DNA of 64,000 nt from a virus (IMGVR_UViG_3300024999_000040:64001-128000), one strand, 5' to 3'. Counted from the stretch's first letter, positions 4,403 to 60,962 are shown. Numbers and translations: made by a program. Notes: generated by a model not told the origin, from the letters alone.

Positions 4403-4424
4403 CGATAGAACCCACATTTTATTG
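4403..4424. repeat. 8-6-8 boundary site
   Basis: cgatagaa-cccaca-ttttattg; contains stop codon at 4419. Confidence 0.7.
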
Positions 4425-4619
4425 TCTCATTATTTCTTTAGAAAAATCATACAAATCATCTTCCTCGATTTCCATATGAGGCATTTCACCGTTACACTTG
4501 ACACAATACAAATGTTTAATGTGATGTTTCTCACGTTTTTTATTAAGTTTTCTAGGGATAGGGAATATGTTCCCACATCCCAAGCATTGTAGATTTTGAA
4601 TATAAATGTTTTTCTTCAT
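4419..4619 (-). CDS. zinc-ribbon protein
   Basis: CLGC...IPR...HIKHLYCVKC. Confidence 0.65.
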   Translation of the reverse strand: MKKNIYIQNLQCLGCGNIFPIPRKLNKKREKHHIKHLYCVKCNGEMPHMEIEEDDLYDFSKEIMRQ

Positions 4620-5191
4620 AATAATTGTTGAATTTCTCTTTGTCTATTGCCAGCAAAATTCCAATCAATTCTCTTTGGTGGATTTAGAAAATTCTTATAA
4701 GCTAATGCCATTTGTTTTGCAGCTATATCAAAAGGTACTCTACCAGTTGCAGTACCTAATCCACAACATGCAACAGTTTGAATATTTCTATGTTTACTTG
4801 TAGCAATTAGCATAGCTTTCATTGCTTGATAAACATTGTCTGTGTTTCTTATATCCATAGGGACTCTCATTGTAGGAGTATGTGCTAAGTATGGATGCAT
4901 GTCATGATAAGTTTGAATAATAAATGATGTTCCTACTGGCTGTTCTCCAGCATAGTTTTCAATAATATATTCTTGTACTCTTTCCATTAATTGAGTACCA
5001 AAATATCTTGTAATGGCTAAATCTATACCACCATCCATTAATCCAAAAGAATTTGCAGGACTAACTATACAATCATAATCAGGCAAATTTTCTAAAGATG
5101 AATGTAGTACAGTTACATTAGTCAAATCTTTAAAGGCTATTTCAAATTCTTTGCATAGGTCTTTATTTATATCAAATAATAGTAAATTCAT
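4616..5191 (-). CDS. macro domain protein (ADP-ribose binding/hydrolase)
   Basis: IVSPANSFGLMDGGID and GLGTATG motifs. Confidence 0.9.
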   Translation of the reverse strand: MNLLLFDINKDLCKEFEIAFKDLTNVTVLHSSLENLPDYDCIVSPANSFGLMDGGIDLAITRYFGTQLMERVQEYIIENYAGEQPVGTSFIIQTYHDMHPYLAHTPTMRVPMDIRNTDNVYQAMKAMLIATSKHRNIQTVACCGLGTATGRVPFDIAAKQMALAYKNFLNPPKRIDWNFAGNRQREIQQLL

Positions 5192-5529
5192 ATTGATTCA
5201 CCATCTTTTTTATTTTCTTCTATACACCTGACCATATAGTCATAAAGTTCATCTAATGTTTTAACACTAATTTCCTTCTCTCCGTATTCACCGTAAAAAA
5301 TAACCCTATTATCTTCTTCGTACAGCCACCAAGACAATAAATCATTCCCATCTGTGCGTTCAAAATCTTCAGCAATCATATTTAATAATTCATCCATTAA
5401 ATAAGTTCCTATAACTGCAACGGTATGTCCATCACAGATTTTACTCACTAAAACGTTTAGCGTATCTTGTTCCGATTGAAAGTTCATTATTAGTTCCATA
5501 CGCTTTTTGAACAATTCTCTTGTCATCAT
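5188..5529 (-). CDS. hypothetical protein
   Basis: translationally coupled ORF; WWLYE and TLDELYDY patterns common in phage proteins. Confidence 0.6.
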   Translation of the reverse strand: MMTRELFKKRMELIMNFQSEQDTLNVLVSKICDGHTVAVIGTYLMDELLNMIAEDFERTDGNDLLSWWLYEEDNRVIFYGEYGEKEISVKTLDELYDYMVRCIEENKKDGESI

Positions 5530-5770
5530 AATTTTATCCTCTCTATTACCCTAATTATCCAACATCCAATTCTTTCACAGTAAGAGAGTCCCAAACCAAT
5601 TAATACACAAATTAACAAAGCAAGAAATCCAAAGCCTACGAAGATTCCTGCTAGTGTGAGTTCAAACAAAATTTTGCATTTATTTTTATAGTTTATATAT
5701 GACATGTTTAGCACTCTCCTTTCGTTTGGTTATAAATACTGTGTAGTTTTTATTACTATATTTGTTTTGT

Positions 5771-6337
5771 TTACAATAACAAATTCCCTAAATCATTCCA
5801 ATTCACAGTTCTTATTCCATTCCAAGTATTATTCAATTCATTAACTTCTCCAAAGCAAATCTTATAATCCGCATTACTACTGATTAAGTTTTTTTCTGAA
5901 TCATCAATAATTATTGAATTTTCACCTGACATATTTACAACTGATTTATCCATTTTGCAATGTTTTTTCATTAACAAAATAGACTCATTAATGAATGGTA
6001 AATTTTCTTCAATCCACCATGCTTTATATGCAAGATTAGAAGGTATTCCGATTGAACATATTCTAACATCATATTCCTGACATATTTCTTTAAGAATTCT
6101 TTTTGTATTTGGATTAATAAATTCAACTACTTCAAAGAAACGTTTACTTCCAAATATTTCATCAACGTGATCTAATAAAGTACACTGATCTAATAAATGC
6201 ATGGGTTCTGCTTTATACCAATCTGCTTTTATGAAATTAGGATGCTTTATGTATTTTTCGTTGTAAACGTCCATGAACGCTTTAATTGAGTCAACTATTG
6301 TTGAGTCATAATCCAGAAATATTTTTTGTTTACTCAT
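5771..6337 (-). CDS. HAD-family 5'(3')-deoxyribonucleotidase
   Basis: FLDYDSTIVD motif I, K, IIDD motif; start revised to MSKQ after GGAGG. Confidence 0.75.
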   Translation of the reverse strand: MSKQKIFLDYDSTIVDSIKAFMDVYNEKYIKHPNFIKADWYKAEPMHLLDQCTLLDHVDEIFGSKRFFEVVEFINPNTKRILKEICQEYDVRICSIGIPSNLAYKAWWIEENLPFINESILLMKKHCKMDKSVVNMSGENSIIIDDSEKNLISSNADYKICFGEVNELNNTWNGIRTVNWNDLGNLLL

Positions 6338-6875
6338 TGTTTCCTCCATTGAGATATTCAACAAACTTATTAACTTCCATTTGTAAATAGCCTTCTCCAC
6401 TTAGAGATTTCAAATAATAATCAAAAGTAAAGTTATCCAATGCTATTTCTGAAAGGTGCAATCTTTGTTCAGGAGTTAAATGATTTTCAAATCCAATTCT
6501 TTCAATATGTAATGAAATAACATCCCATCCAAAATCTTTAAGATAATTTATTTCGTTAGGAAAGCGTGTATCTGGTATTAAAAAATAATCAAAATCATCA
6601 TCAAATACATCTATGAACATTTCAATTAATTCAACCCAAAAGTTAAGATTCCTAGTTCTTACTTTTTCTGTGCCTATTTGCTGAAGAATAGTTCTACCTT
6701 TTTCATCTTTATTACCATCCCAACCAAAATATTGTTTGCATATGTATTTTAAGTAATCTGCATAATGAATAATTAATACTTTTTTACCTAAATATTCTAA
6801 TTTATCTTTTAGGATTGTTGCGGTTAAGTCTTTACCATGTTCTGCTTTTGCAGATAGAGTTATTATTTTACTCAT
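6330..6875 (-). CDS. deoxynucleoside monophosphate kinase
   Basis: AKAEHGKD P-loop, YADYLK, RTILQQIGTE, DTRFPNE, H.SE; start revised to MSKII. Confidence 0.85.
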   Translation of the reverse strand: MSKIITLSAKAEHGKDLTATILKDKLEYLGKKVLIIHYADYLKYICKQYFGWDGNKDEKGRTILQQIGTEKVRTRNLNFWVELIEMFIDVFDDDFDYFLIPDTRFPNEINYLKDFGWDVISLHIERIGFENHLTPEQRLHLSEIALDNFTFDYYLKSLSGEGYLQMEVNKFVEYLNGGNNE

Positions 6876-6888
6876 TATTATATCCTTT

Positions 6889-7518: not shown

Positions 7519-7572
7519 AACCCTTTAAAACCTCACTTTTGTTGGCTTATTTTTAATTTATTTATACTTATT

Positions 7573-12096: not shown

Positions 12097-12118
12097 CAAT
12101 AAAATGTATTTTCTATTG
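12097..12118. repeat. 8-6-8 boundary site
   Basis: caataaaa-tgtatt-ttctattg; stop codon at 12113. Confidence 0.75.
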
Positions 12119-12505: not shown

Positions 12506-12716
12506 ATTTTAATTCCTCTTTTCTCGAAATACTTTGAATGCATTCTTTTATTGTTCTACTTTTCTTCACATACTTCAACATTAATTTCACAAACAAAATC
12601 ATAAGTATCATATTTTGAAATAACGTCTAATAATTCTTGTAACTGTTCGTAGCCTTTACATTCATAACTTTCGCCTTCTCTTTTAATTGTAAATTTTAAC
12701 ATAACCTACTCCTTTC

Positions 12717-14558: not shown

Positions 14559-14633
14559 TTATGAAATAGGATATATATTGGGTATACCATATATAGCATC
14601 AAAAATAAATTTTATATACTATATATGGTATGG
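14559..14633. repeat. 8-6-8 site fused to long inverted repeat (copy 1 of 3)
   Basis: ttatgaaa-taggat-atatattg followed by TACCATATATAG...CTATATATGGTA. Confidence 0.7.
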
Positions 14634-15302: not shown

Positions 15303-15324
15303 CTTTAAAATTTCCGTTTCGTTG
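15303..15324. repeat. 8-6-8 boundary site
   Basis: ctttaaaa-tttccg-tttcgttg. Confidence 0.6.
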
Positions 15325-16516: not shown

Positions 16517-16538
16517 CAATAAAATTCAAATTTCATTC
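16517..16538. repeat. 8-6-8 boundary site
   Basis: caataaaa-ttcaaa-tttcattc. Confidence 0.7.
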
Positions 16539-16955: not shown

Positions 16956-16977
16956 CAATAAAATTGCCAGTTCAATC
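16956..16977. repeat. 8-6-8 boundary site
   Basis: caataaaa-ttgcca-gttcaatc. Confidence 0.55.
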
Positions 16978-18249: not shown

Positions 18250-18271
18250 CAATAAAACTGCAATTTCATCG
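18250..18271. repeat. 8-6-8 boundary site
   Basis: caataaaa-ctgcaa-tttcatcg. Confidence 0.8.
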
Positions 18272-19077: not shown

Positions 19078-19099
19078 CAATGAAATAAATCTTTTATTT
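19078..19099. repeat. 8-6-8 boundary site
   Basis: caatgaaa-taaatc-ttttattt; stop codon at 19094. Confidence 0.75.
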
Positions 19100-20238: not shown

Positions 20239-20504
20239 AATTATTTCCTTCCTTAAAGGCAACGAAAACTGTCTTTTATTGGGTTTATATAAACGATCTC
20301 CAATGTTTTTCGTCTTCACTTTGTTTAATGCTTTGCCTTAATCTAGATATTAATTTTAATTGCTGTAAATCTGATAACATATCAAATGCTTGCCAAAACA
20401 ATGTTTCAATATGAATTTTATTATTGTCTTTATATATAAGTTCTATAACTTTATCTTTATTTGTCATATGCTCCAATTACCTTCCACTCTTTTGCTATAT
20501 TAAC

Positions 20505-20557: not shown

Positions 20558-21082
20558 TTATTTAAGTTGATTTCTTAGATGATAATAAAACGTACAAAAA
20601 ATAAATTTTGCAGTATATTCTTTATTCAAAAATATAAAATTCAAGCCATACCTATCTGTCATTGAATGTAAGGTACCTATTGCAGATTTAGAAGCATATT
20701 TACTTTGATATTTTCCTTCATACATGTCATCATAAGTAGAATCTTCTATTATCAAATACATTTTACCCTTATGCCTAAGAAATTCAGATTCTAGTCTATC
20801 CCTTTCTACGAAGTTTTCTATTATTTCGTCAAGACATCCCTTACGTTCTATGGAAATTTGATTATTAAAATAAGTATCTCTAATTATACCTAATTCTGGA
20901 TTTTTAGGAATATAAAAACTATAATCTCCCCAATCAAGTTTCTTGCTAACATAAGAGATTTTCTTTTTATCAAACCATTCTGTAATATGGGAACATTGTT
21001 GTTCCCTACTGTCACATATAATTGTCATAGAAGATAATATTTTCTTCAGTTCAGCTTCAGTATATTTGAAATTTTCAATCAT
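20558..21082 (-). CDS. ERCC4/XPF-family nuclease
   Basis: DSREQ, GDY, IERK...DE motifs. Confidence 0.85.
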   Translation of the reverse strand: MIENFKYTEAELKKILSSMTIICDSREQQCSHITEWFDKKKISYVSKKLDWGDYSFYIPKNPELGIIRDTYFNNQISIERKGCLDEIIENFVERDRLESEFLRHKGKMYLIIEDSTYDDMYEGKYQSKYASKSAIGTLHSMTDRYGLNFIFLNKEYTAKFIFCTFYYHLRNQLK

Positions 21083-24000
21083 TTGCTTTCTCCATTCTGA
21101 AATTTGTAAGTGATATTACTATATTTTGGTATCCAATATTCAACAGTTCCATCTACTTCTCTATATATTTTCTTTCCTGTATCTGGATTAATTTCTCCTG
21201 TTGGTTCTTTTTGTGGCTTTTCATCAATAACTTTAACAAACAAAAAATCTCCTTGATCAAATGGTTGTTTATTATATTGATTTGTCCACATTTTTGTTTC
21301 TATTGTTTCACCATATTTAATTCTATACAAGATTACTTTAGTTATTGATTTTAGTACTTCCAACTCCGAAATATAATAAATATCATATGAATATTGATTA
21401 TCACTAAAAGTAATGATTCCTAGAATTTCCTTCTGATTGTCTATTATCTCTTTTGTGGTTAAAGGAATATTTTCTATATTACTTATAATATCCTGTAACA
21501 AATCTTTATTTCTAAGTTTAGTAACTTTTTTTGCAGTTTCATTTCCATAACCCAAAACAAAATCTAGCTTTATTCCATATTCTTCTATTTTGGCTTTAGA
21601 AATTTCTTTTGATTCTCCAAAAATATCATTCCATTTTATAATTTGTAAAAGATAATTAACACCACCAAATTGTTTAAAATAATTTAACTTAACAAGTTTT
21701 TCAATAACAGTTTTATTAATTCCAACTCCTTTTAAAGAATCAAGGAATTCTATAAAATTATTATATTTACTTTGTCCAAGTTCAAATAATGTTTGCGATA
21801 CCTTTTCACCAAATCCTTTTATACTAGACATATTCGGATAGATAACTTTATTTTGTTCATCAATATTTACTCTTCTATTATCTATACCAAATTCATAATC
21901 CCCAAGTCTATATCCATAAAAAGTTAAAGCTTCTTTTACAAGTGCATCAATTTTCTTTTTATTCTCTTTATCTTGATAGTGGTTAATTGCTACTTCATAA
22001 AATTTTGTTGTATGATGTGCTTTAAACCACGCTTGATATGCACTATCACCTCCCATTGATAAAGCATGTGGAGCATTAAATGCATACCTTGCTGAGTCCT
22101 CGATAACATCCCAAATATTATCAAAATTATCAAGATTATTAAATATCTTAATCCAATTTTCTTTTAATGTACTTTTTAATTTATCTAACTTCTCTCCTTT
22201 AAGTTTCTTTTTAGATATCGCTTTTAAAACACCATATGCCTCACCCATAGGTAAACCAAGAAAAGATAATAACTTCATTATAGATTCTTGATATAACATA
22301 AAGTGATAACTATCAGTAAGTAAATCATCTATAATTTTTTCTCCGGTTGTATAGTTTTCTCTTGCTAAAAATGTTCCTAATAGCGATTTAAATCCTGGTC
22401 GTATACCAGCTATAAAAGCACTAGATTCAGCTAAAGTTTTTGCTTTATATTGTTTTGCTTTCTTCGTTGTTGATTCTTTTTCAACTTGATTAACACAACA
22501 AGTTATTCCTTTTTCATATATCTCCCATGTTGCTTCATCGTTTTGAATCATTTCTCTTAATTCATCAAAAGTAGGTACTTCTTTCCCAATACTTTGAAAA
22601 AACTTATGAGTTAAATGAACACTATCAACTATAAGATAATCATTTTTTACATAGCCAAATTCATCAAGATAATTACCTTCTATACAAGCACATAGAGTAC
22701 GTTTTCCTGTAGTCTCTGATACTGCATTGATTAATCCTATCTTGCGTCTTATATCTCCTTCTAGCAACAAATAACCGCATGGATGAGCCTTTAGATTTAT
22801 TGTAATTCCTTGATATTCTAAACTGCCTTTATAAATTTCAAGATATTCTTCTGGAATAAAGTCTTCAATATGTATGAATTCTTTATCTTCTTCATCAGCA
22901 TATTTTAATTTATCGTTATACTTATCAATAAACTTAGATATTTCATTTGCAACTTCTGGTTCAACATCATTTGCTCCTGCGAATAATTGCCATGCTGCCT
23001 TTTCTTTAAGTTTTTCAATTGCCATCAAAGGATAACAACTATGATATCCAATTAGTTCTCTTGTTGCTTCTACAAAAGGTTCTTGTACGGCAACATTATA
23101 ATCTATATCTGGCATTTGTCCACTTAATACCCTATCTTTTGTTAAAAATCTTTCAGGATATATAGGAATTTCACAATTAAATCTATCTATTGTAGTAAAT
23201 CCCAATAATTTATTTGTTATAAATGATGCAGCACTACCTCTTGATGTGGTAGTTAAAATTCCACCTTTTTCATTAACTGCTTTAGATATTATATGATAAT
23301 TAGTTAATGGATAATCTACTACTCCACTATCCACATATTCTCCTACTTCATATCTTATACCTGCAACTTTTTCAGGTGTTTTTAACTTTTCATGTTTATA
23401 ACTATCATTTATAATTTTCTTAAATATTTTAGTTCTTTCTTCATATGTAGTATTTGGATAAACACAAGGTATTTTGAAACTCTGATCAAAAACTGTTTCT
23501 TCACATTCATTAATAAATACATTTGTATTCATCATTGATGTTAGAATTTCTTCATTATTTAAAACACCTTGCCTTTTAAACCTTTCGAATATTTCTTTAT
23601 TATTAGGATAATCAAGATACCATCCTTCTTCATCTTCATAGGTGATGCCTTTGTATTTTAATATCTGATCACGTTTAATTGTATTTTCAGGTTTAACATA
23701 ATGGCTATCTAATCCGCATATAATTTGTATTCCGTATTTCTTAGATATTTCTAATATTTTTTCATTGAGAAATTTTTGGCTTGGAGTATTATGATTTTGT
23801 ACTTCTAAAAAGAAATTATCTCCAAAATGTTCATGAACTTTTAACCATATATCTTCTGCATCTTCATATTTCCACCCTGTAACACATGCGGAGGTTATTA
23901 TCATATTATCTTTAGGAATATTAAATAACAATTCTAAATCAATTCTAGGTTTATAATAATAACCATCTTCGTTCGCAATAGAAAGAGCAAAATTCAAGTC

Positions 24001-24369
24001 TTCACGCCCTATCTCATTCTTTGCAACTAAAACTATATGACAATTAGTTCTATCTTTTTCTATTCTATTTTTAACCCAATATGCTTCAGCAGAATGTCTA
24101 TACTTTAATTCATATTTTTTAGCAATTTTATATGCTTCAAACTGGTTTCCTTGGTTTCCATGTTCCCCACTAAATAAACATCTTCCTTTATATTCAATAG
24201 TTTTTTCTGCATAATTTTCTATTGGTTCTGCACAATCAGGAGTAGAAACATTTGAATGATAAGTATGCTTATGATAGTTCTCACAATATAAATTTTCTAA
24301 ATAATCATCTACATTATAAGGAAATTTAAATGATAAAGAAGGTATTATTTTTTCAATTAGTTCTCTCAT
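21079..24369 (-). CDS. dnaE: DNA polymerase III alpha-type replicative polymerase
   Basis: PHP domain (HKHTYHS, DSHY), SRGSAA, ERFL, MPDID, HPCG, KND, YQE, YAFN.PH. Confidence 0.92.
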   Translation of the reverse strand: MRELIEKIIPSLSFKFPYNVDDYLENLYCENYHKHTYHSNVSTPDCAEPIENYAEKTIEYKGRCLFSGEHGNQGNQFEAYKIAKKYELKYRHSAEAYWVKNRIEKDRTNCHIVLVAKNEIGREDLNFALSIANEDGYYYKPRIDLELLFNIPKDNMIITSACVTGWKYEDAEDIWLKVHEHFGDNFFLEVQNHNTPSQKFLNEKILEISKKYGIQIICGLDSHYVKPENTIKRDQILKYKGITYEDEEGWYLDYPNNKEIFERFKRQGVLNNEEILTSMMNTNVFINECEETVFDQSFKIPCVYPNTTYEERTKIFKKIINDSYKHEKLKTPEKVAGIRYEVGEYVDSGVVDYPLTNYHIISKAVNEKGGILTTTSRGSAASFITNKLLGFTTIDRFNCEIPIYPERFLTKDRVLSGQMPDIDYNVAVQEPFVEATRELIGYHSCYPLMAIEKLKEKAAWQLFAGANDVEPEVANEISKFIDKYNDKLKYADEEDKEFIHIEDFIPEEYLEIYKGSLEYQGITINLKAHPCGYLLLEGDIRRKIGLINAVSETTGKRTLCACIEGNYLDEFGYVKNDYLIVDSVHLTHKFFQSIGKEVPTFDELREMIQNDEATWEIYEKGITCCVNQVEKESTTKKAKQYKAKTLAESSAFIAGIRPGFKSLLGTFLARENYTTGEKIIDDLLTDSYHFMLYQESIMKLLSFLGLPMGEAYGVLKAISKKKLKGEKLDKLKSTLKENWIKIFNNLDNFDNIWDVIEDSARYAFNAPHALSMGGDSAYQAWFKAHHTTKFYEVAINHYQDKENKKKIDALVKEALTFYGYRLGDYEFGIDNRRVNIDEQNKVIYPNMSSIKGFGEKVSQTLFELGQSKYNNFIEFLDSLKGVGINKTVIEKLVKLNYFKQFGGVNYLLQIIKWNDIFGESKEISKAKIEEYGIKLDFVLGYGNETAKKVTKLRNKDLLQDIISNIENIPLTTKEIIDNQKEILGIITFSDNQYSYDIYYISELEVLKSITKVILYRIKYGETIETKMWTNQYNKQPFDQGDFLFVKVIDEKPQKEPTGEINPDTGKKIYREVDGTVEYWIPKYSNITYKFQNGESK

Positions 24370-24380
24370 ATTATATTCCT

Positions 24381-27173
24381 TTACTTTAATATTTCTTTTA
24401 ATTCATCTGCGAACAAACAATATTTACCTTTATTTCTACTTTTATTTTCATTAGTATTATATGTAATATACAGTTCATCTTTTGCTCTAGTGATATCAAC
24501 AAATAGAAGTCTTCTTTCTTCTTCAAGTAAATTCAAATCGTCTTGAATTTCGTCATATTTAAATGAATTAATAGTTGTAATAACTACACTCCATTCCTTG
24601 CCTTTGCTACTATGTGCTGTTGTCAAAGTTACTACATTGTATTTATTTTCATCTTTTTCTATGCTTGTATCATCATTATATAAATTTATTTTATAAATAT
24701 GTTCTAAGAAAAGATTAAAATTATCAAAAGTTATTTCTTGTAAATCTTCAATAAAACTTTTTGCTATTTCATCTTTTTCTATAATGGGATCAATTAATTT
24801 ATAAAAATATTCTATTCTTGATTCTTCAGATTTTAAACTACTGAATTCCTCTATTATTTTTATTTTAAAATCATTACAAAACATTTCAATATATTCCTTA
24901 TTCTTTTCTGAAAGCTCATTAATAAAATACAAATGCTCCATCAAATAATAATCATGTTCATTGTTTTTAAAGAAATTACTTAAATTTATTATGTGCTGAA
25001 CATTTACATTATCGATATATAACTCACTTGCTTCTATCACATTAGGAATATTTTCTTTTTTAAAGTAACTTTGAATTTCCAGTAATTCTTTTTTGGTTCT
25101 TGCTATTATACAAACTTCATATTTTGGAATGCCTTTAGATATACTCTCTTTTACAAAATTGGTAATACCAATGTATTCATTTTCTAAAGTATCATAAGGT
25201 ATTAAGATAGGTACTTTACCATTACTTCTTCTGCCAATAATTTCTTTATCAATTCTTTGTGTATTTAATTTGTTTAACTCATTAGCAACATAACATATTT
25301 CATTTGTTGACCTAAAATTATCAAGCAGAAAAACGTCATTTACATTTGTAAATTGTTTATCAAAGTTTAAAATGTTCTCAGGCGTAGTATTTCGAAATGA
25401 GTAAATTGCCTGTGAATCATCTCCGACAACCATTAATGAATTCATATTATTATATTTTTCTAATAAATGTAATAACTTTACTTGTGTAAAATCTGTATCT
25501 TGATATTCATCTATTATAACATGCTTAAATCCATATTTGTCAATTAAATTAATATCTACTTCAAATAGTTCAATTAAGTATAATATCTGGTCTTGATACT
25601 GTATTAACCCCTTAGATTTTAGCTTTTCATTAAACTTAGAATACATCTCATAAATAAGATCAGCCTTATTTGATTCTACATTAAAATCCTTTTCTCTTGA
25701 CAAAATTTTCTCATTAAATGTTCCAACACTATAATCATAACTTTTTATAATATTGAAATATATCACAAGTTGCTTAAAAGCCCCTTTAGCATTAGGATAA
25801 TTAAGTAGTGGATTCCTATAATTTAACCATTCTATTTTACTATACTCTTCTATTTCAAACAGTTCTTTAATAATATCATTTACATCTATAGAGTTTGCCA
25901 ACTTAGGTTGTACTGAAAACCCTAGTTTATTCCATTCTTTAGATACTATGCTATCTCCAAAAGAGTTAAAGGTAAAAATATTGAGATTATTAACATTTAT
26001 GTTTTTGATTCCATAATAACTTAACCAATAGTTAATTTTATCTCTTAATTCTTGCGCTCCTTTATTAGTGAAGGTTATTAATAATATATCTCTTGGAGTA
26101 TACCCCTTCTTGAACAATTCTATTGTCCTCATGACCATACTTGATGATTTTCCTGAACCTGCAACAGCATTTATCCTATAATTACCATGTTCTATTTCTA
26201 CAATCTGTTTTTGATCTTTTGTTAGTTTAAGTTCTCCGCTAGATTTCTTAGAATCTATAACTATTTTCATATCCAATTTATTATTAGTATCTTCATAATT
26301 ACATAGAGTTGAATAATTACAAAAATCACAATCGGAAGATTTACATTTTTCTGAATTAAAATTCAAATCAGAATTTAAAAGTTCTATAATTTCAGCATCT
26401 AGGGATTTATCATAATTAAAAGTTATGATATTGTTCCCTTCGGAATTATTAAAATATAGAACATCAGATATTTCCTTAATTTGTTTTTCGTGTTCTTTTT
26501 GCAACTTTTTATCAGGGTAACTAATTAGTTTTAGATTATTTAATACTTCAGTCAGTTCATTTTCATCCGTCAAAAATTGAGAATAAAGGGCTTCTTTATC
26601 CTTCTTCCCTTTTAAATGATAAAATGAAGATATAATTGGTTTACCTTTACTAGCGTATAATTGCTCCCCTAACTTTTTCAAAAGATATAATTCTATATCA
26701 TTCTCAGGTAAATTCTTATCTGTTCTTGCCTTATAACTCAATTCAGTTGCACCCATCTTATATTTTATTATTTCAATACTTTCAGGATTCTCAAAACCCA
26801 CATCAGCATTTATTTCTATTTCTTGATCATTTATTGAAACATTCCCATATATAGTTTTAGCTATTATTTCTCTATTCTTCAGCTTCTCAAAAGTTATATA
26901 TCTTGATAAATGGGAAAATATTATATTTATTTCTACTGTTTTCTCTTGTTTTGTTAAGAAAAACTTTTCTTCTATTAGGTTTTCTATCAAAGATTTTAAC
27001 TCTGTATCCTTTAGGTTAACAAAATCATAATCCTTAATAATAGTTTTATATATTTGGGAAATCATACTGGACTTATTATTAAGAGTCTTAAAATTGCTAA
27101 ATTGAGATACATAGGCTTTAAATTTACAATCTTTTATATTTTTGAGTTGATATAATTTTATTTTATTTTTCAT
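24381..27173 (-). CDS. UvrD/PcrA-like SF1 helicase with N-terminal extension
   Basis: AVAGSGKS, TFTNK, DEYQD, VGDDSQAIYSFR, NFRS, TAHSSKGKEW, EERRLLFV.ITRA. Confidence 0.88.
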   Translation of the reverse strand: MKNKIKLYQLKNIKDCKFKAYVSQFSNFKTLNNKSSMISQIYKTIIKDYDFVNLKDTELKSLIENLIEEKFFLTKQEKTVEINIIFSHLSRYITFEKLKNREIIAKTIYGNVSINDQEIEINADVGFENPESIEIIKYKMGATELSYKARTDKNLPENDIELYLLKKLGEQLYASKGKPIISSFYHLKGKKDKEALYSQFLTDENELTEVLNNLKLISYPDKKLQKEHEKQIKEISDVLYFNNSEGNNIITFNYDKSLDAEIIELLNSDLNFNSEKCKSSDCDFCNYSTLCNYEDTNNKLDMKIVIDSKKSSGELKLTKDQKQIVEIEHGNYRINAVAGSGKSSSMVMRTIELFKKGYTPRDILLITFTNKGAQELRDKINYWLSYYGIKNINVNNLNIFTFNSFGDSIVSKEWNKLGFSVQPKLANSIDVNDIIKELFEIEEYSKIEWLNYRNPLLNYPNAKGAFKQLVIYFNIIKSYDYSVGTFNEKILSREKDFNVESNKADLIYEMYSKFNEKLKSKGLIQYQDQILYLIELFEVDINLIDKYGFKHVIIDEYQDTDFTQVKLLHLLEKYNNMNSLMVVGDDSQAIYSFRNTTPENILNFDKQFTNVNDVFLLDNFRSTNEICYVANELNKLNTQRIDKEIIGRRSNGKVPILIPYDTLENEYIGITNFVKESISKGIPKYEVCIIARTKKELLEIQSYFKKENIPNVIEASELYIDNVNVQHIINLSNFFKNNEHDYYLMEHLYFINELSEKNKEYIEMFCNDFKIKIIEEFSSLKSEESRIEYFYKLIDPIIEKDEIAKSFIEDLQEITFDNFNLFLEHIYKINLYNDDTSIEKDENKYNVVTLTTAHSSKGKEWSVVITTINSFKYDEIQDDLNLLEEERRLLFVDITRAKDELYITYNTNENKSRNKGKYCLFADELKEILK

Positions 27174-27195
27174 TAATAAATCCTTCTTTATAATT

Positions 27196-28551
27196 TTATT
27201 TGAAAATTGATTGTTTTTTATTGTTTTTATCCTCTTTTGCTATACTGTAAAAATTAAAAGTTCTGCCTTCAAACATCAAAGGGAAATATCCAGTAGCCCC
27301 ATTTCTTTGTTTTGCAATAATTGCTTTCCTTTTTTGAATTTCAGCCATATCATCAGAATCACTTTCTTTATGAAGAAAAATTACGTTATCAGCATCCTGC
27401 TCTATATCACCACATTCTCTTAAATCGCTCAATCTAGGTTCTCTATTTTCTTTTTCTGTTGCACGATTTAATTGTGCTAACGCAACTACAGGAATATTAA
27501 ATTCTTTTGATAGTGATTTTAAATTTCTACTGATATCTCCAAGTTCTCCATTTCTATTGTCAGTTTTTTTCATAGTCAACATTAACTGAATATAATCTAC
27601 AAATAAAGCATCTAACTTGTTTTTTGATTTTAATTGTCTACAATAAGCACGAATTTCTTGTATGTATTTAAATTCTTCAATTTGCAATGGAAGGCTATTA
27701 ATATATATCAAGGTTTGTTTGTATAATTTATATTCATCTTCTGTCATTAATTTAGGCTTTCTTAATTTATGACTATTAATTTTTGATTCTGAAGATATTA
27801 GTCTTGCCAATAATTGCTTATCAGACATCTCTAAACTTATAAATGGAATATGTAATCCTTTTTTAACAAGATTTCTAGCAATTTGTAATCCGAAAGCGGT
27901 CTTGCCAACAGCAGGTCTAGCCCCAATAATTGTAAATTCTTGTTCATGCAATCCGTCTAACCAATAATCATAATCGGTTAATCCTGTAAAATATTTTTCT
28001 TCATTTCCATTATCTTGATTTCTTTTTCTTTCAATATCTCCATCAAGTTCTTCTGAAGCTTTTTTCATACTTCTATTTTTCTTTTGATCATTTATGTCTA
28101 TTCCAGATATAATTTCTAGGGCATCATTTTTTAAGTCAACAGTATTATCATAGTCTTGCTCATATGCTTTTTCTTGTATTTCTGAAGACTTTTTTATTAA
28201 TTGTCTTCTTATGGATTTTTCTTCTACTATTCTTGAATAATGTTTAGCATTTGCAGTTGTTGGTACATTACTTGAGATATAAGCAAGATAATCATAGCCA
28301 CCAATTGTATCGAAAATATTCTGTAATTTTAATTGTTCTGATACAGTAATTATATCTACTGGTTTATTACCATTATGTAGTTCATAAATAATATCAAATA
28401 TTTCTTGATGTTCTGGCTTATAAAAATCCCTTGAATTTAAAATAGATAAAATATCTGGTATAATATCACTATCCAATAAGGCAGAACCTAATACACTTTG
28501 TTCTGCCTCAATGTTTTGTGGAGGCAACCTACCTAAAGCATTAAAATTCAT
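27196..28551 (-). CDS. dnaB: replicative DNA helicase
   Basis: PPQNIEAEQSVLG, GARPAVGKT, SLEM, DYIQL, AQLNR, DIEQDAD, KQRNG. Confidence 0.96.
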   Translation of the reverse strand: MNFNALGRLPPQNIEAEQSVLGSALLDSDIIPDILSILNSRDFYKPEHQEIFDIIYELHNGNKPVDIITVSEQLKLQNIFDTIGGYDYLAYISSNVPTTANAKHYSRIVEEKSIRRQLIKKSSEIQEKAYEQDYDNTVDLKNDALEIISGIDINDQKKNRSMKKASEELDGDIERKRNQDNGNEEKYFTGLTDYDYWLDGLHEQEFTIIGARPAVGKTAFGLQIARNLVKKGLHIPFISLEMSDKQLLARLISSESKINSHKLRKPKLMTEDEYKLYKQTLIYINSLPLQIEEFKYIQEIRAYCRQLKSKNKLDALFVDYIQLMLTMKKTDNRNGELGDISRNLKSLSKEFNIPVVALAQLNRATEKENREPRLSDLRECGDIEQDADNVIFLHKESDSDDMAEIQKRKAIIAKQRNGATGYFPLMFEGRTFNFYSIAKEDKNNKKQSIFK

Positions 28552-28561
28552 AACACCATCC

Positions 28562-29239
28562 TTAATTTACTTCATAATTTGATAAATCTTTATATTGAGG
28601 CTTTTTAGGCTGATTAATAGAATTTTGTTTATTCTTTTTTTCTTCCATATTAATCCAAGTTAAAATAGTATGGTAATGACTAGCTTTCTTTCTTTTTGCT
28701 TCAGTAGGTTTTTCACCTATCCAATTATTCAAACTCTCTATTTTATCATCTATGAATTTCTTATCGTATTTTTCTACTAACTTTTCATATTCATTTTCAG
28801 TCAAAAAAACATATTCCAAATATTGTTTTTTATCTTCTTTGGGTTTTTCTATTTTTATATCGTTTTCAACTAAATTTGTATTAATATTTACTTTCTTTTT
28901 CATCTTCTGAATATTATTTAATAAATTTGGTACATATAAAATTCTTTCATTTTTCCATTTTTCTTTATCAATAGCATCTAATTCACATAGAGTGTTTAAA
29001 ATTTCAGACATTAATTTACCATCAATTTTAAATTTATCTAATAGAATTTTACATGCTCCTTTTGTTTTAGCACAAAATTGATAATCATGAGATGGACTAC
29101 TTCCTAAAACTTCTAATAATTTAAACCAAACTGCATACCCATTATTTTGATATAACATTTCCAATGTTTTTATTGTTGTGCTTTCTTTTAATAAATGAGG
29201 GAAAAAGTCTATAGATTGTTTAGGTTTCCCTGCCATCAT
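28562..29239 (-). CDS. probable replication initiator/replisome organizer
   Basis: FFPH...GYAVWFKLLE N-terminus, V.LTE.EY.KL C-terminus; located between ssb and dnaB. Confidence 0.6.
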   Translation of the reverse strand: MMAGKPKQSIDFFPHLLKESTTIKTLEMLYQNNGYAVWFKLLEVLGSSPSHDYQFCAKTKGACKILLDKFKIDGKLMSEILNTLCELDAIDKEKWKNERILYVPNLLNNIQKMKKKVNINTNLVENDIKIEKPKEDKKQYLEYVFLTENEYEKLVEKYDKKFIDDKIESLNNWIGEKPTEAKRKKASHYHTILTWINMEEKKNKQNSINQPKKPQYKDLSNYEVN

Positions 29240-29263
29240 ATATCACCTACTTTTAAAAGATTT

Positions 29264-29288
29264 TAGGAGGAGAATATTTCTCCTCCTA
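29264..29288. terminator. perfect 11-bp hairpin after ssb
   Basis: TAGGAGGAGAA-TAT-TTCTCCTCCTA; U-tract weak. Confidence 0.5.
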
Positions 29289-29306
29289 TAAGTTTACATA
29301 TTTGTA

Positions 29307-37807: not shown

Positions 37808-37829
37808 CAATAAAACTGTCACTTCATTG
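37808..37829. repeat. 8-6-8 boundary site
   Basis: caataaaa-ctgtca-cttcattg; stop codon at 37824. Confidence 0.75.
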
Positions 37830-38153: not shown

Positions 38154-38175
38154 CGATAAAATTGTAATATCATGG
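38154..38175. repeat. 8-6-8 boundary site
   Basis: cgataaaa-ttgtaa-tatcatgg; stop codon at 38170. Confidence 0.6.
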
Positions 38176-38569: not shown

Positions 38570-38962
38570 TCACTTAGATACAATTTTTACCTTATATCCT
38601 AACATATGTTCAATTTCTTCAATACTTAATTCTTGTGGTGTATCATCTATATCTTCTACATACTCTTGAACTAATTTAAACCACTTTGAATTTTCTCTTA
38701 CACTAGCATGAAAAATAATTGCATCTCCTGTCAATCCACAGTTACCTTTTCCTGAATAACAACCACCATTTTTAGTCCAACATAATTTTAAACATCCTTC
38801 AGCTAAACTACCATGTATATCATCTTCTTTATCCCAATAAAATATTGCTCCTGCATCTATTCCAGGAATATCTTGTAACAATTCATAAAAATTATAACTT
38901 CCGTCTAATGCTTTTACTCCCATATTGTTTTCCTTTCCCAATGCAATCATAGTTTTAATCAC
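38570..38962 (-). CDS. hypothetical protein
   Basis: C-terminal ELSIEEIE..LGYKVKIV phage motif. Confidence 0.6.
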   Translation of the reverse strand: MIKTMIALGKENNMGVKALDGSYNFYELLQDIPGIDAGAIFYWDKEDDIHGSLAEGCLKLCWTKNGGCYSGKGNCGLTGDAIIFHASVRENSKWFKLVQEYVEDIDDTPQELSIEEIEHMLGYKVKIVSK

Positions 38963-40866: not shown

Positions 40867-40888
40867 CTTTAAAATAACTGTTTCATTG
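40867..40888. repeat. 8-6-8 boundary site
   Basis: ctttaaaa-taactg-tttcattg. Confidence 0.65.
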
Positions 40889-41547: not shown

Positions 41548-41569
41548 CAATGAAATGAACGATTCATCG
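41548..41569. repeat. 8-6-8 boundary site
   Basis: caatgaaa-tgaacg-attcatcg. Confidence 0.75.
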
Positions 41570-43191: not shown

Positions 43192-43213
43192 CAATAAAAC
43201 TTATGATTTATCT
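43192..43213. repeat. 8-6-8 boundary site
   Basis: caataaaa-cttatg-atttatct. Confidence 0.55.
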
Positions 43214-44231: not shown

Positions 44232-44253
44232 GAATAAAATCTGGTGTTCATAG
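44232..44253. repeat. 8-6-8 boundary site
   Basis: gaataaaa-tctggt-gttcatag. Confidence 0.55.
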
Positions 44254-44255
44254 AC

Positions 44256-44720
44256 TTATCTTAACACTAATAAATAAAACATATATCCAAAGTAACTTAA
44301 ATATATAGTACTTGTGATAAATCCTTTGACTGTAAATCTTTTCATATCATCAAGAGCAACTTCATATCTCACTCTTCCTTCATCAGTTTTCAAATCACAC
44401 TTTGGCTTATTGTTTCTGTTAAATACAAATGTACTAAACAATAAGTAAAATATTGTAAATATAGTAGGATATTTGTAAATATCTACACCAAAGGCATTTA
44501 CTAGGTATATACCCTCTGCAATAATTAAAAGCAAAACTAATAACATTTTCCAACTAATTTTTAGTATTTCTTTTCCAATTGTTTCTTTCTCTTTTTCCTC
44601 AATTGTTTGTGCCTGTTTTAATGTTAGTTCTCCATGCTTCTTCATTATATCAAAGAATAAATTTCCTCTAACCAATGAAGCCGCATAATATGTAATAAAT
44701 ACTACTGTCCAAAATATCAT
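44256..44720 (-). CDS. multi-pass membrane protein
   Basis: about four hydrophobic segments. Confidence 0.65.
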   Translation of the reverse strand: MIFWTVVFITYYAASLVRGNLFFDIMKKHGELTLKQAQTIEEKEKETIGKEILKISWKMLLVLLLIIAEGIYLVNAFGVDIYKYPTIFTIFYLLFSTFVFNRNNKPKCDLKTDEGRVRYEVALDDMKRFTVKGFITSTIYLSYFGYMFYLLVLR

Positions 44721-44731
44721 AATTTTCTCCT

Positions 44732-45197
44732 TTACTCCTGCATCTCAAATTCAACGTTACATTCACCACAAATAATATTCTTATCTGCTTTAGCCTTTAT
44801 CTTTTCTTCACATTGAGGACAAATGTATGTGAATTGTGTTTTCTCTTTAGGTGTACTTTCTTTTAACGGAGCATTCCTAAAATAAGAGAAACATTCCATA
44901 TTTAACTTTATACTTTCATCAATGAAAGCCTTAAATTCTTCTGAACACGTTGTATGACCAAATCCATACTTCTTACTCTTGTCAACTATTAATCCTACAG
45001 CTTCAGCAGCCTTTTTAAACTTTTTATTATGTACTTGACCATTACAATCCTTAATCTCTGCTATTTTGTTAGCGTAGTGTACCATTTCATGTTGTAGCGT
45101 ACATACTATCTCATATCCATCTCTGCTGAGATATTCAGCACACATATGTAATTTCATACCACATATCTTCTGAAGAATCTAGTAAATATAATTTCAT
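44732..45197 (-). pseudogene. 5'-truncated, frameshifted SprT-like metalloprotease
   Basis: HEMVH, HNKKFK, C-terminal CPQC/CGEC; expected YEIT-MCAEYL join is broken by one extra base; N-terminal part missing. Confidence 0.6.
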
Positions 45198-45649
45198 ATA
45201 TTAATCCTCATCCTCTACTATATCTATTTTATTTACTGTTTCAGGAGTCAACCCTATACCCATTAGAAAATTCTTAAATTCATCAACTAAGAATTCTAAA
45301 GAAGTTTTATCCATAAATACTGCATCGGTAAAAGTTTTTGTAATTCTACTTTCTTGACCAAATTCATCAGTATAGGCAAAATCTGTTTTTATAATATTTT
45401 CTTCCATTATTATTTCTCCTTTCAGGCATCAACTATCATATTGATATTCTGGAGTACAAATAAATCTGTAACTATATTCTTGTTCTTTTATTTCAAAAAT
45501 TATTCTAGTTGCATCTCTATATTTGTCTCTTAGTATATCAAAGACTAATTTACAAACTTCTTTATCATCCATATTTTCAATTTCTATTCTTATTTCATCT
45601 TTCATATCATGTTTATAAATATTATTTGAACAATCAATTTGTACCATAA

Positions 45650-46609
45650 TTATTCTCCTTTAACAATTTTAAACATTTCATCAATTGTTCCTAATAACTC
45701 ATATCTATTTAAAGAAGTGGAATTCTTAGCAAAATCTTCTTTTACCAAATCTATATACATTGTAAATTGACCATCATCTCCCATATAAAATTCATTCCAT
45801 TCTTCGGTTGTGAATAGCCTTCTTATATTCAATTGTTCTAATGCTAGATTATCAAAACTAACCACCTCGAAAGAAGCAATGATTTTATGCATATTATCAT
45901 AAATAGATTTCTGATTTTTTACTATATTATCTTCATTATTTCCTTTGTACTCATGACCTCTTCTTAAATCTTTATATCCTAATATTAAAAGTTTATATCC
46001 TTTATTCGATAATTTCATAATACTATCAAAAGAATGAATTCCATTAATAACATGAATTACTGTATTCTTCTTATATTCATTTACTTCTCCATCATCATAT
46101 ATATCTAAAGTAAATATTCTTTCTAATTCTTCGGCATCTCCATTATAAGATATACCAACTCCATATACTTCTTTATGCTTCATCCAATGAAAAATATCAT
46201 AAACATTTTGAGATTTAAAATAATTTTCTTTACCATTAAAGTTCATAAATTCACCAGTTAGATGATTTTGATTAACAGTTATATTTGCTATAATCCCCTT
46301 ACTCTTACACCATTTTAAGAACATATATAAATCTTTATTCTCAAAAATATTCCCTCCACCTATAGCAAGTTCCGTTCCTGCTCTTAGTGAGTATAAAAAT
46401 TCATGATTAAAATTTGCATTTTTACCATCTGGAGTAGAATTTTCATGACAAAAAGCACAGCCCATATCACACTTATCAGAAATTTTAATATCAATATTTT
46501 CAGGAAAAGAAGATATGAATTTATCCTCGTTGTTTTCCCTTATTTTTGTTCCATCATCATAAAGTTTTACAGAATAATTTCCATTTATGTATTCATGAAG
46601 TAAATTCAT
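45650..46609 (-). CDS. radical SAM enzyme
   Basis: PENIDIKI, CDMGCAFCHE, AIGGG, NITVN. Confidence 0.9.
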   Translation of the reverse strand: MNLLHEYINGNYSVKLYDDGTKIRENNEDKFISSFPENIDIKISDKCDMGCAFCHENSTPDGKNANFNHEFLYSLRAGTELAIGGGNIFENKDLYMFLKWCKSKGIIANITVNQNHLTGEFMNFNGKENYFKSQNVYDIFHWMKHKEVYGVGISYNGDAEELERIFTLDIYDDGEVNEYKKNTVIHVINGIHSFDSIMKLSNKGYKLLILGYKDLRRGHEYKGNNEDNIVKNQKSIYDNMHKIIASFEVVSFDNLALEQLNIRRLFTTEEWNEFYMGDDGQFTMYIDLVKEDFAKNSTSLNRYELLGTIDEMFKIVKGE

Positions 46610-48117: not shown

Positions 48118-48139
48118 ACATGAAATTTGTGTTTTATTG
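48118..48139. repeat. 8-6-8 boundary site
   Basis: acatgaaa-tttgtg-ttttattg; stop codon at 48134. Confidence 0.7.
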
Positions 48140-53520: not shown

Positions 53521-53542
53521 CAATGAAACATCTATTTCGTTG
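53521..53542. repeat. 8-6-8 boundary site
   Basis: caatgaaa-catcta-tttcgttg. Confidence 0.75.
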
Positions 53543-54487: not shown

Positions 54488-54562
54488 TGGCAGCCATTAA
54501 TGGATTCGAACCACCGCATACAGGAGTCAAATTCCTGAGCCTTACCGCTTGGCTAAATGGCT
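54488..54562 (-). tRNA. tRNA-Gln(TTG)
   Basis: full cloverleaf AGCCATT/AATGGCT, CAGGA-ATTTGAC-TCCTG, TTCGAAT, G73, encoded CCA. Confidence 0.92.
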
Positions 54563-54852: not shown

Positions 54853-54929
54853 TGGTAGCTGTGATGGAATTCGAATCCATTCTTTCAGGTTTTTAAGACC
54901 TGTTCCTCTTCCTGTTGGGATACACAGCC
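54853..54929 (-). tRNA. tRNA-Leu(TAA) with short variable loop
   Basis: GGCTGTG/CACAGCT, CAGGT-CTTAAAA-ACCTG, TTCGAAT, A73, encoded CCA. Confidence 0.88.
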
Positions 54930-55609: not shown

Positions 55610-55631
55610 CGATGAAATAGCTTTTTTATTT
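55610..55631. repeat. 8-6-8 boundary site
   Basis: cgatgaaa-tagctt-ttttattt; stop codon at 55626. Confidence 0.75.
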
Positions 55632-56398: not shown

Positions 56399-56420
56399 AA
56401 ATGAATTCTCCCATTCATCG
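56399..56420. repeat. 8-6-8 boundary site
   Basis: aaatgaat-tctccc-attcatcg. Confidence 0.6.
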
Positions 56421-57490: not shown

Positions 57491-57512
57491 CAATAGAATC
57501 ATTATTCTATTT
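57491..57512. repeat. 8-6-8 boundary site
   Basis: caatagaa-tcatta-ttctattt. Confidence 0.7.
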
Positions 57513-57852: not shown

Positions 57853-57874
57853 CGATGAAAAATTACTTTTATAA
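57853..57874. repeat. 8-6-8 boundary site
   Basis: cgatgaaa-aattac-ttttataa; stop codon at 57869. Confidence 0.7.
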
Positions 57875-58276: not shown

Positions 58277-58298
58277 CGATGAAATTAAAGTTTTATTT
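58277..58298. repeat. 8-6-8 boundary site
   Basis: cgatgaaa-ttaaag-ttttattt. Confidence 0.75.
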
Positions 58299-59336: not shown

Positions 59337-59358
59337 CATTGAAAGAATAGATTTATTG
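59337..59358. repeat. 8-6-8 boundary site
   Basis: cattgaaa-gaatag-atttattg. Confidence 0.65.
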
Positions 59359-59615
59359 TCTATTCTTTATCTTCCCATTCTGATATTACTGGTTGAACCA
59401 CCAATTTTGCTCTTTCAGAATAAGTTTTTGTACCACCCCAAAAGAATTCTCCTGCCTCGTTATAAGCTTCAAGTTGTCCTTCATCTGTACGATATTCTGA
59501 TTTAAAACAGATGGAATCATTAAATACAAATAATCCTGCTGGACATTCTTCTAATGTGCAAGCCCAACCTTCAGGCTTTAACACTAATTTTTTCATAATA
59601 TATTCCTTCCTTTCC

Positions 59616-59637
59616 GATTAAAAAGATTGCTTCGTGG
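59616..59637. repeat. 8-6-8 boundary site
   Basis: gattaaaa-agattg-cttcgtgg. Confidence 0.5.
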
Positions 59638-59639
59638 TC

Positions 59640-60065
59640 TTATTGCCACAGTACCCACCAAAATTCCTTAATTGCTTTCCACCAATCATTATATTTAAAA
59701 TCACAATACCTTCTAATATGCTCTATCTTCGTTTCTGGCTCTTGCATATATCCATAAGCATAATGATTAATATAATGTCCACAATTGGCACACACAAGAT
59801 CATATTCTAAAACAGTTGAACCATACCCATCTAATCTATCTGTATTGGTTTCTGTTGTTTTGGTGGATTTACATTTAGGACATTTTTCAAGGTTATTCCA
59901 CTTGTTGAATATGTATAAAAACTAATTTCTTATCTTTCCAAATAGCCTAACTTTCATTTCAAATGTAAAAACTGTATCCATACAATCTGGACATTTATCT
60001 GGACATTCAGTCCAATTATTACAATCATCTAAATTACATGGAGATTTATTATATTTTTGTTCCAT
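59640..60065 (-). pseudogene. Cys-rich gene with in-frame TAG
   Basis: MEQKYNKSPC...KIRN*FLYIFNKWNNLEKCPKC...; stop at 59922-59924; absent from ORF track. Confidence 0.65.
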
Positions 60066-60084
60066 ATTTCTCCTTCCCAAAAGT

Positions 60085-60106
60085 GATTAAAAGGCTTCAT
60101 TTAAAG
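60085..60106. repeat. 8-6-8 boundary site (degenerate)
   Basis: gattaaaa-ggcttc-atttaaag. Confidence 0.45.
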
Positions 60107-60880
60107 TATTTTAATACTCTGTAAATTCATGCCCACAATCATTACATTTACACTCATATTTTATTTTATATGATACTGTTTCCCAATAACTATAATCAAG
60201 GCTGCTGTCCATTTTCTTTTCTTTGACCTCATTATATCTTACTTCTTTTACAACAATATCTGAACTATTACATTTGTCACATGTAAACTGAATTTCCTTC
60301 ATGCTTTCATCTCCCTCACACCTATAGCACATTCCATACACTGAGTATAGTAATCATCCCAATTACCTGAAGGTAAATCCTTATCTAATAATCCATTTCT
60401 TCTCAATAAGTTTCTAATAGCCATTCCATCATAATGATGATATCCAATAAACCATTGTGCTTTAGTTTCTGAAGGAGTATTATTATATAGATTTACTAAA
60501 AACTTTTTCTCTCCTTCTTTAAAATCATTGTTTAGAATTTCTACTGCTTTTTGTAATATGTCTTTAGGCAATTCATTAGAACACTTTTCATGATGAGCGT
60601 TAAATTCCTCATCTGTTGGAATTTCGATTATATTACTATTCATATATTTTTCCTTTCTTGAAACAACAACAGTTGCTTTTCATTTACTCTTCTAAATATT
60701 TATCAAACCAATCAAAACAATCTTGCAATAATTGTTTTCTACACCAATAAGTATTTGAACCTTTTGGGTCACGTTTACAATTTCCACAATTTCCTTCTTT
60801 GCAAAATTTTAAAGTATGATAAAGTTCTACACTTTTATCATCTACAATATTTATTATTTCACACATAATTTCCTTTCTCA

Positions 60881-60962
60881 CAATGAAATTTATATTTTAT
60901 TGGCTATACCATATATAGATTTATAACATAAAAATATATACAATATATGGTATAGCCAATTG
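60881..60962. repeat. 8-6-8 site fused to long inverted repeat (copy 3 of 3)
   Basis: caatgaaa-tttata-ttttattg followed by GCTATACCATATAT...ATATATGGTATAGC. Confidence 0.8.

Follow-up and report, generated by a model that had tools for sequence, protein, structure and literature searches.

A 64,000 nt stretch of viral DNA, bases 64001-128000 of IMGVR_UViG_3300024999_000040 (the window), holds about 25 copies of a recombinase-style DNA palindrome, CRATRAAA-N6-TTTYATYG, between small genes. What does a palindrome repeated in this way do for a phage? An earlier reading of the window's sequence (the original prediction) proposed an integron-like system in which single genes, each with its ribosome-binding site (RBS), are excised, inserted or reordered. 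Here, the palindrome was followed through the 148,716 bp viral contig that includes the window (28.9% G+C; estimated 76% complete) and through related phages. The motif is real, with a fixed geometry and with selection on its half-sites, and it is present across the family. In relatives, the sites are collinear and slot-specific, and it is at their borders that the flanking sequence has been replaced. No support was found for the excision of single cassettes in integron fashion.

The palindrome is enriched at a fixed spacing

The motif consists of two inverted half-sites (core ATRAAA) exactly 6 bp apart. With up to two mismatches allowed, the whole genome (148.7 kb) contains 43 copies with a 6 bp spacer and 2-10 with every other spacer from 0 to 15, which bears out the claim that the spacer is always 6. 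When the half-sites were sought in reversed or direct arrangement, the genome scan gave no spacing peak. The fixed spacing is that of a tyrosine-recombinase core site, in which inverted arms surround a central region of 6-8 bp. In the window, 21 copies with two mismatches or fewer were found vs 1.75 in shuffles, and a position weight matrix returned 26 at a score of at least 12 where 1.5 were expected. The scan against shuffled sequence that the original prediction had proposed was thus run, and the motif is enriched.

Copies were graded by mismatches to the consensus as solid (0-2), probable (3) or no better than background (4-6). The 34 copies first listed then divide into 19 that are solid and 5 that are probable (15303, 16956, 44232, 56399 and 57491), which stand, and 10 at background level, which do not (13581, 14559, 40141, 47447, 48870, 53343, 55886, 57053, 59616 and 60085). 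Two strong copies, at 4093 and 20260, were absent from that list. Arm symmetry spans positions 0-23. The suggested extension to a 10-6-10 form did not hold, as 42 of the 57 intergenic copies have no complementary base past the 8 nt arms.

Copies lie between the stop of one gene and the RBS of the next

The genome has a plus-strand block (1-55.3 kb) that contains the structural genes and a minus-strand block (55.4-148.6 kb); the genes of the window are on the minus strand throughout. With up to three mismatches allowed, 57 of the 75 copies in the genome are intergenic. In the minus block, the distance from the site is -13 to +8 nt to the upstream stop and 14-29 nt to the next start, which places the site just before the RBS, as originally described. 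In the plus (late) block, sites are 2-8 nt past stops in long intergenic regions, with separate canonical terminators alongside. At the 11 open reading frame (ORF) ends named in the original prediction, the TRA of the arm doubles as the stop codon (TAA, TGA or TAG). All 11 are at offset +16 of a listed copy, 9 of them at solid copies. As had also been noted, the replication block (20558-31987), the ligase/PARP genes and the nicotinamide adenine dinucleotide (NAD) genes are free of internal sites; the sites flank these blocks.

Most copies have no promoter nearby. A conserved promoter-like box, TATATRGTATA(C/G)C, directly abuts the palindromes at 14559, 34908 and 60881 (window 14570-14625, 34930-34952 and 60903-60955, respectively). 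In the last of these, two facing promoter-like boxes form a larger inverted repeat, and the box-plus-site layout is also found in a relative (L001, 215-260). Two copies have a consensus sigma-A promoter that ends 28-29 nt before them. Promoter-proximal genes were examined as possible sources of an autoregulated binder, and no DNA-binding domains were found in them.

The motif is a trait of SPbeta-like phages

The core ATRAAA-N6-TTTYAT is present in 14-15 copies in each of the relatives G001-G003 (G1-G3; 160-207 kb), where a control pattern was found 0-1 times, and in 14 copies in Bacillus phage SPbeta. Enrichment was also seen in 13 of 45 additional large contigs, and the unrelated large phages reached via NAMPT lacked the core. 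When palindromes were counted de novo, the top signal was TAAAA-N6-TTTTA in SPbeta and TGAAA-N6-TTTCA in G1-G3. SPbeta-like phages share the motif as a family trait, over a range that runs from Bacillus SPbeta to relatives of the Clostridia type.

The window phage is one of them. Its closest cultured relatives at protein level are Clostridium phage c-st and phiCD211, and it encodes a DnaE-type polymerase, DnaB, a UvrD-like helicase, anaerobic NrdD, an NAD-dependent ligase, a PARP-like protein and NAMPT. From these relatives and this gene content, we take it to be an SPbeta-like phage of an anaerobic Firmicute.

The arms appear to be half-sites in duplex DNA

The original prediction held that arm mismatches would be G-U pairs on different strands in different copies, and that this favours DNA half-sites over RNA hairpins. 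Both statements are supported. At the R/Y positions of the arms (5/18), the copies in the genome of the window phage have A-T 21 times, G-T 14, A-C 18 and G-C 3. With every arm position included, 25 G-U and 28 A-C pairs are found on the sense strand. In seven genomes pooled, the counts were 56 A/T, 56 G/C, 22 A/C and 19 G/T, and none of the genomes showed covariation. RNA folding gave energies from 0 to -6.8 kcal/mol, and in 7 of the 14 window sites folded the structure was no more stable than -1 kcal/mol. No Rfam family matched at the sites. As the arms vary independently, and given the pair counts and the weak folding, selection is on half-site sequence and not on pairing. The palindromes thus probably act as double-stranded DNA and carry the signature of a symmetric protein dimer.

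An intrinsic terminator was considered and rejected. The arms are AT-rich and fold only to the energies given above, there is no U-tract, and separate canonical terminators are found beside sites.

Genes are replaced at the sites in relatives

Seven Spbetaviruses that are approximately 95% identical where homologous were analysed jointly. At junctions that contain a site, 129 comparisons were mosaic and 21 collinear, vs 62 and 124, respectively, at site-less spacers of at least 25 nt. The ends of homology fell at the outer borders of the 16 nt core in 57 and 54 cases and inside the core in 13. Alignment of relatives had been proposed as a check on the original prediction, and it confirms that gene replacements end at the sites, mostly at the borders of the core.

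The 6 bp centres are specific to their junctions. Their order is identical in all seven Spbetaviruses, and none is repeated within a genome. Among 143 cross-genome pairs of sites with identical centres, both flanks were conserved in 46, one was unrelated in 67 and both were unrelated in 30. About 1 pair of the last kind is expected by chance (composition-based baseline, ~4.4e-4 per pair), though the 30 also fit short-homology recombination. In one example slot, alignment revealed an invariant 19 nt island between three differing right flanks and three differing left flanks. A centre that varies from junction to junction but survives the replacement of both neighbours implies that the replacements end in the site itself.

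The trio G1-G3 gave a similar picture. Site junctions were mosaic in 13 cases vs 2-3 that were collinear (~50 vs 55-60 for site-less junctions), and 23 identical-centre pairs had both flanks unrelated where about 3 were expected. In base-level alignments, the whole site is common to both genomes, and homology stops at the site's outer edge, which may be the left or the right one. Sites carried along with either neighbouring gene were not seen in the relatives.

Each junction keeps its own core across phages, which suggests exchange between matching cores. The tolerance of non-matching cores known from Tn916-type integrases, which the original prediction had invoked, is not needed.

A possible exchange at matched joints

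Identical 6-8 bp centres in both partners are a hallmark requirement of tyrosine recombinases. The junction-matched centres, together with the Xer-like geometry and the A-rich inner arms, lead us to read the palindromes as recombinase-type sites. We suggest that they are the double-stranded sites of a dimeric Xer-type tyrosine recombinase and serve as matched crossover joints between related phage genomes, the best supported of the explanations considered, on which our confidence stands midway between doubt and acceptance. The binding and cutting of the sites by the recombinase is predicted.

According to this model, half-sites (core ATRAAA; CRATRAAA in the window phage) would flank a 6 bp centre found at no other junction of that genome. 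In a cell shared by two related phages, or by a phage and a resident prophage, only sites with the same centre could complete strand exchange, and these would be one and the same junction on the two genomes. From the joint onward, the whole of one side would be swapped. A swap at matching joints would replace blocks of RBS, gene or genes and stop without breaking genes or gene order, and the unlike centres within one genome would block deletions and inversions. In its fullest form, which we offer tentatively, the proposal is of a natural addressed cassette exchange in SPbeta-like phages, the window phage among them, in which a conserved and catalytically active YomM-like Xer-type recombinase would join co-resident phage genomes at same-centre sites only and genes would be freely exchanged on a fixed scaffold of 50-70 joints.

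Phages are mosaic, and the classical modular theory put special linker sequences at module borders. To our knowledge, enzyme-defined linkers have hardly been found so far. If the proposal is correct, it would give a concrete mechanism for the trade in metabolic, defence and counter-defence genes among large temperate Firmicutes phages, with gene order kept. It would also provide a role for the orphan tyrosine recombinases of SPbeta, YomM and YopP, and a set of ready-made orthogonal recombination sites for engineering.

Candidate recombinases

An Xer/dif-like site calls for an intact recombinase, and profile matches identified three PF00589 proteins in the genome, each of which is at most a candidate for the cognate enzyme. 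None is in the window, as the original prediction had stated, and the three were found by the search of the remaining genome that it recommended. The recombinases match Xer proteins far better than they match the integron integrase IntI4.

The first candidate would be a 353 aa YomM-like protein in the late block (genome 26547-27608). Its family retains the whole catalytic set (R, K, H, R, H/W and Y), and the nearest solved structures are XerA, XerC-like and XerH. The family is present in 10/10 complete motif-rich genomes and in 2/23 complete motif-poor genomes. One of the two motif-poor carriers, G025 (L214-L218), is a 97.6 kb relative with a diverged YomM-like gene in which a relaxed core, TAAAA-N6-TTTTA, is present ten times. 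A second dispersed palindrome, TTGAA-N8-TTCAA, was seen in G025 in 24 copies vs 1.2 at other spacings, and 13 of the 24 are full 18 bp palindromes. In the window phage, a skipping-rope RNA motif (RF02924, 63.6 bits) is located just upstream of the YomM-like gene (genome 26286-26414; L065:6286-6414).

The second candidate would be a 306 aa Xer-like protein (genome 137880-138800) with Xer motifs; its gene neighbours those for the YopQ-like and MrpR-like proteins, which is where yopP is found in SPbeta. As the binder of the palindromes, this positional equivalent of YopP was set aside because its presence does not track the motif. Among the core genes of SPbeta-like phages is that for YopP, whose sole stated feature is an XerC-superfamily integrase domain. 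A literature search yielded no report of a function for either YopP or YomM.

Several observations weigh against exchange by a dedicated recombinase. The ordered genome pairs behind the 129/21 and 62/124 counts are not independent. In G1-G3, break positions are scattered over the whole intergenic spacer. None of eight indels between related genomes had sites at both ends; sites were at one end only. Of the window's three perfect sites, two (34908 and 60881) abut a promoter-like box, which fits an operator too. Common descent confounds the link between the YomM-like family and the motif, a YomM-like gene is present in G017, which lacks the motif, and no site is consistently adjacent to the yomM-like gene. 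In laboratory hybrids of SPbeta and phi3T, 15 of 16 junctions were in long homologous regions (bioRxiv 10.1101/2020.05.06.055103). The one non-homologous junction of that study is after yosA, near a palindrome.

The window phage itself adds to these points, as the collections searched hold no close relative of it. A phage collection, and IMG/VR queried with DnaE and NAMPT, yielded no relative above approximately 80% nucleotide identity outside the replication genes, and four exact 22-mers of window sites had no match in IMG/VR. Its centres match those of other phages at chance level (21 observed vs ~17-26 expected). That the same exchange operates in the window phage is therefore inferred from its kin.

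A metagenome contig (L232:383-404) contains an exact 24 nt copy of the 18250 site, centre included. The copy is intergenic and follows a canonical terminator, and both of its flanks are unrelated to the window. As a trace of exchange it is suggestive, near the chance limit.

Alternative explanations

The palindromes could instead be a dispersed array of operators or roadblocks, at which a dimeric phage regulator silences or times the transcription of accessory genes in the manner of stoperators. The mosaic borders would then be secondary, with conserved intergenic islands merely marking where homology ends or short-homology recombination occurs. Symmetric half-sites that vary independently suit such a regulator, as do the promoter-like box at two of the three perfect window copies, the sigma-A promoters 28-29 nt upstream of two copies and the conserved lysogeny module (MrpR-like, YopQ-like DndB/ParB-type and Xer-like proteins; genome 134312-138800). 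However, a regulator needs no junction-unique centre that is kept letter for letter when both flanks are replaced. Most copies are also distant from any promoter, and those of the late block sit 2-8 nt after stops, beside terminators of their own. We consider an operator array unlikely.

The known operator of this phage family differs from the palindrome as well. In SPbeta, the repeated element bound by MrpR (YopR, SroF) is a 15 bp motif found at about 10 promoters (PMC10516654), and the MrpR-bound box of phi3T is 26 bp, asymmetric and read by a monomer (bioRxiv 10.1101/2025.11.27.690993). The SPbeta-type operator is an asymmetric box of 24-26 bp to which a monomer binds, at about 10 promoters. 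Nor does the MrpR N-terminal domain track the motif: the complete motif-rich genomes G001, G003, G009 and G018 lack it, and the motif-less G008 and G016 have it. The MrpR/SroF operator (SPBRE) was ruled out on these grounds, since the element studied here is palindromic and its ~57 intergenic copies are mostly promoterless.

A second possibility, which seems to us distinctly unlikely, is that the identical islands of 19-25 nt are short conserved linkers that provide micro-homology for host RecA or for single-strand annealing by the phage, with no dedicated enzyme. Such islands would be comparable to the promoter-early stem-loop elements of T4-type phages and to the linkers of the modular theory. 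Mosaic borders and slot-specific centres would be expected here too if crossover needs identity over the whole island. SPbeta-like phages readily recombine through homology, and SPbeta is annotated with a Sak4-like annealing protein and a RecJ-like exonuclease. Conserved linkers would nevertheless leave unexplained the shared inverted half-sites at exactly 6 bp, the conservation of the arms from Bacillus to Clostridia-type phages, and an Xer-type recombinase with intact catalytic residues that tracks the motif. An identity of 16-22 nt is, moreover, at or under the usual minimum for efficient homologous exchange.

The original prediction's own picture, of integron-like or pdif-like cassettes in which single site-RBS-ORF units are excised as circles and reinserted within or between genomes, is now very improbable. 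The architecture of the sites is recombinase-like, recombinases are encoded in the genome, and the sites are at gene 3' ends, as attC sites are, sometimes overlapping the stop. Against this, no indel of the eight was bounded by sites at both ends, and the sites do not move with either neighbouring gene. The order of the slots is conserved, not shuffled, all centres within a genome are different, and there is no selection for a folded strand. Neither an integron-type integrase nor an attC-like site was found, the recombinases being far nearer to Xer proteins than to IntI4.

RNA hairpins that act in polycistronic mRNA as processing sites, stabilisers or terminators are scarcely credible: the copies are all in transcribed non-coding positions, after stops and before RBSs, and the arms are mostly fully complementary in G1-G3, but on the sense strand A-C pairs are no rarer than G-U and the arms do not covary, half of the tested copies are unfolded, the sites lack a U-tract, GC-rich terminators stand separately beside those of the late block, and Rfam offers no match.

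Comparison with known systems

In engineered cassette exchange at heterospecific lox or FRT sites, the arms are the same, the short centres differ and only like centres recombine. The exchange at matched joints proposed here resembles this, in that a segment between two unlike sites could be swapped for another bounded by the same two sites. It differs in being natural, with dozens of addresses per genome, an 8-6-8 geometry and a candidate enzyme, and the exchange is read from comparative genomics.

Xer/dif systems (XerH/difH, XerS/difSL and XerA) also have inverted arms and a short centre, which is 6 bp in dif and difH and 11 bp in difSL (PMC5357621). Their inner arms are likewise A-rich/T-rich; among single-recombinase sites, difH reads ...ATGAAAA and has a 6 bp centre, and difSL reads ...GAAAA / TTTTC... 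and has an 11 bp centre (PMC5357621). The recombinases nearest to those of the phage are XerA, XerC-like and XerH. However, the phage arms are 8-9 bp and not 11 bp, and there are 50-70 sites per genome and not a single dif. The sites are also phage-encoded, with no FtsK context known and a function other than dimer resolution. The pdif modules of Acinetobacter plasmids similarly include genes bounded by many Xer-type sites, but the phage sites do not alternate in orientation.

The resemblance to integrons lies in accessory genes without promoters whose stops are followed by sites, and in the expectation of a tyrosine recombinase. An attC site, however, is 57-141 bp and is recognised as a folded single strand (R''-L''...L'-R') with extrahelical bases, whereas the phage sites are 22 bp with no selection on pairing. 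No attI, Pc or IntI was seen here, and the slots are ordered, not stacked. With neither attC folding nor IntI, attI and Pc, and with Xer-like recombinases, the system was not assigned to the integrons.

Promoter-early stem-loop (PeSL) elements of T4-type phages, reportedly described by Arbiol, Comeau, Krisch and co-workers in 2010, are likewise short repeated intergenic elements at the borders of exchangeable accessory genes in large phages. PeSLs combine a promoter with a stable stem-loop and are proposed to work by homologous recombination, whereas the palindromes have neither promoter nor stable hairpin and have slot-specific centres. With only 14-29 nt and an RBS alone between site and start codon, and no stable stem, the phage sites are not PeSLs.

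The stoperators of cluster A mycobacteriophages (L5 gp71) are comparable in that tens of binding sites lie in short intergenic spaces near stop codons. Unlike the phage palindromes, they are asymmetric, oriented with transcription, of one shared sequence and bound by the immunity repressor. SPBRE and Phi3TRE belong to the same phage family as the palindrome, are also dispersed in intergenic positions and are bound by a protein of tyrosine-recombinase fold, MrpR (YopR, SroF). They differ from it in being 15-26 bp, asymmetric, read by a monomer and present at about 10 promoters, and the palindrome is a separate element that coexists with them in SPbeta. Finally, REP/RAYT elements and IS200/IS605 hairpin ends were rejected, as PF01797 had no match in the genome and selection does not act on pairing.

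Copies in the window

The junction palindromes of the window, to which no strand is assigned, include three perfect copies. One is at 18250-18271, whose 24 nt island is the one shared with contig L232. The others, at 34908-34929 and 60881-60902, come directly after a promoter-like box, and the latter borders the NAD genes. Strong copies with one mismatch are located at 4093-4114, 2 nt past a stop, and at 4403-4424, where the stop of the ORF at 4419-4619 is within the arm. The copy at 12097-12118 is also strong, with the stop within the arm and the next start 17 nt on. The replication block has the strong copy at 19078-19099 as its downstream border and a copy with two mismatches or fewer at 32011-32032 as its upstream border; homology to L001 stops inside the latter. 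Further strong copies are at 16517-16538, 20260-20281, 37808-37829, 41548-41569, 53521-53542, 55610-55631 and 58277-58298. Those at 38154-38175, 40867-40888, 43192-43213, 48118-48139, 57853-57874 and 59337-59358 have two mismatches.

Probable copies, each with three mismatches, were found at 7523-7544, 12532-12553, 15303-15324, 16956-16977, 38939-38960, 44232-44253, 56399-56420, 57491-57512 and 60664-60685. The first of these is upstream of thyX and approximately 28 nt downstream of a consensus sigma-A promoter.

Other features of the genome

Beyond the window, the genome encodes an MrpR-like protein (PF22822), a YopQ-like DndB/ParB-type protein and MazF, in addition to the three PF00589 recombinases. 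These genes include an SPbeta-type lysogeny module (genome 134312-138800; L068:6312-10800) that contains, in order of transcription, the Xer-like recombinase, a 64 aa ORF, MazF, the YopQ-like protein and the MrpR-like protein. There is no obvious antitoxin beside MazF.

Three HEARO RNAs (IscB omega RNA, Rfam RF02033; 118-146 bits) are each immediately 5' of an ORF of 410-446 aa. All three pairs are outside the window, on the plus strand at genome 24320-25961 (L065:4320-5961) and 44429-45899 (L066:4429-5899) and on the minus strand at 131916-133383 (L068:3916-5383). The single adjacent ORF that was scanned has RRXRR and HNH domains, as in IscB, and the loci look like three IscB-type RNA-guided nuclease elements within the phage genome.

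Four tRNA genes were identified, two in the window on the minus strand (54491-54562 and 54856-54929) and two at L065:2412-2483 and 3920-3993. A GmrSD-type restriction-like gene (N-terminal domain) is in the early arm (genome 145341-146501; L068:17341-18501). A 642 aa radical-SAM-type protein (genome 128165-130093; L068:165-2093) is split by an intein with a LAGLIDADG homing-endonuclease domain.

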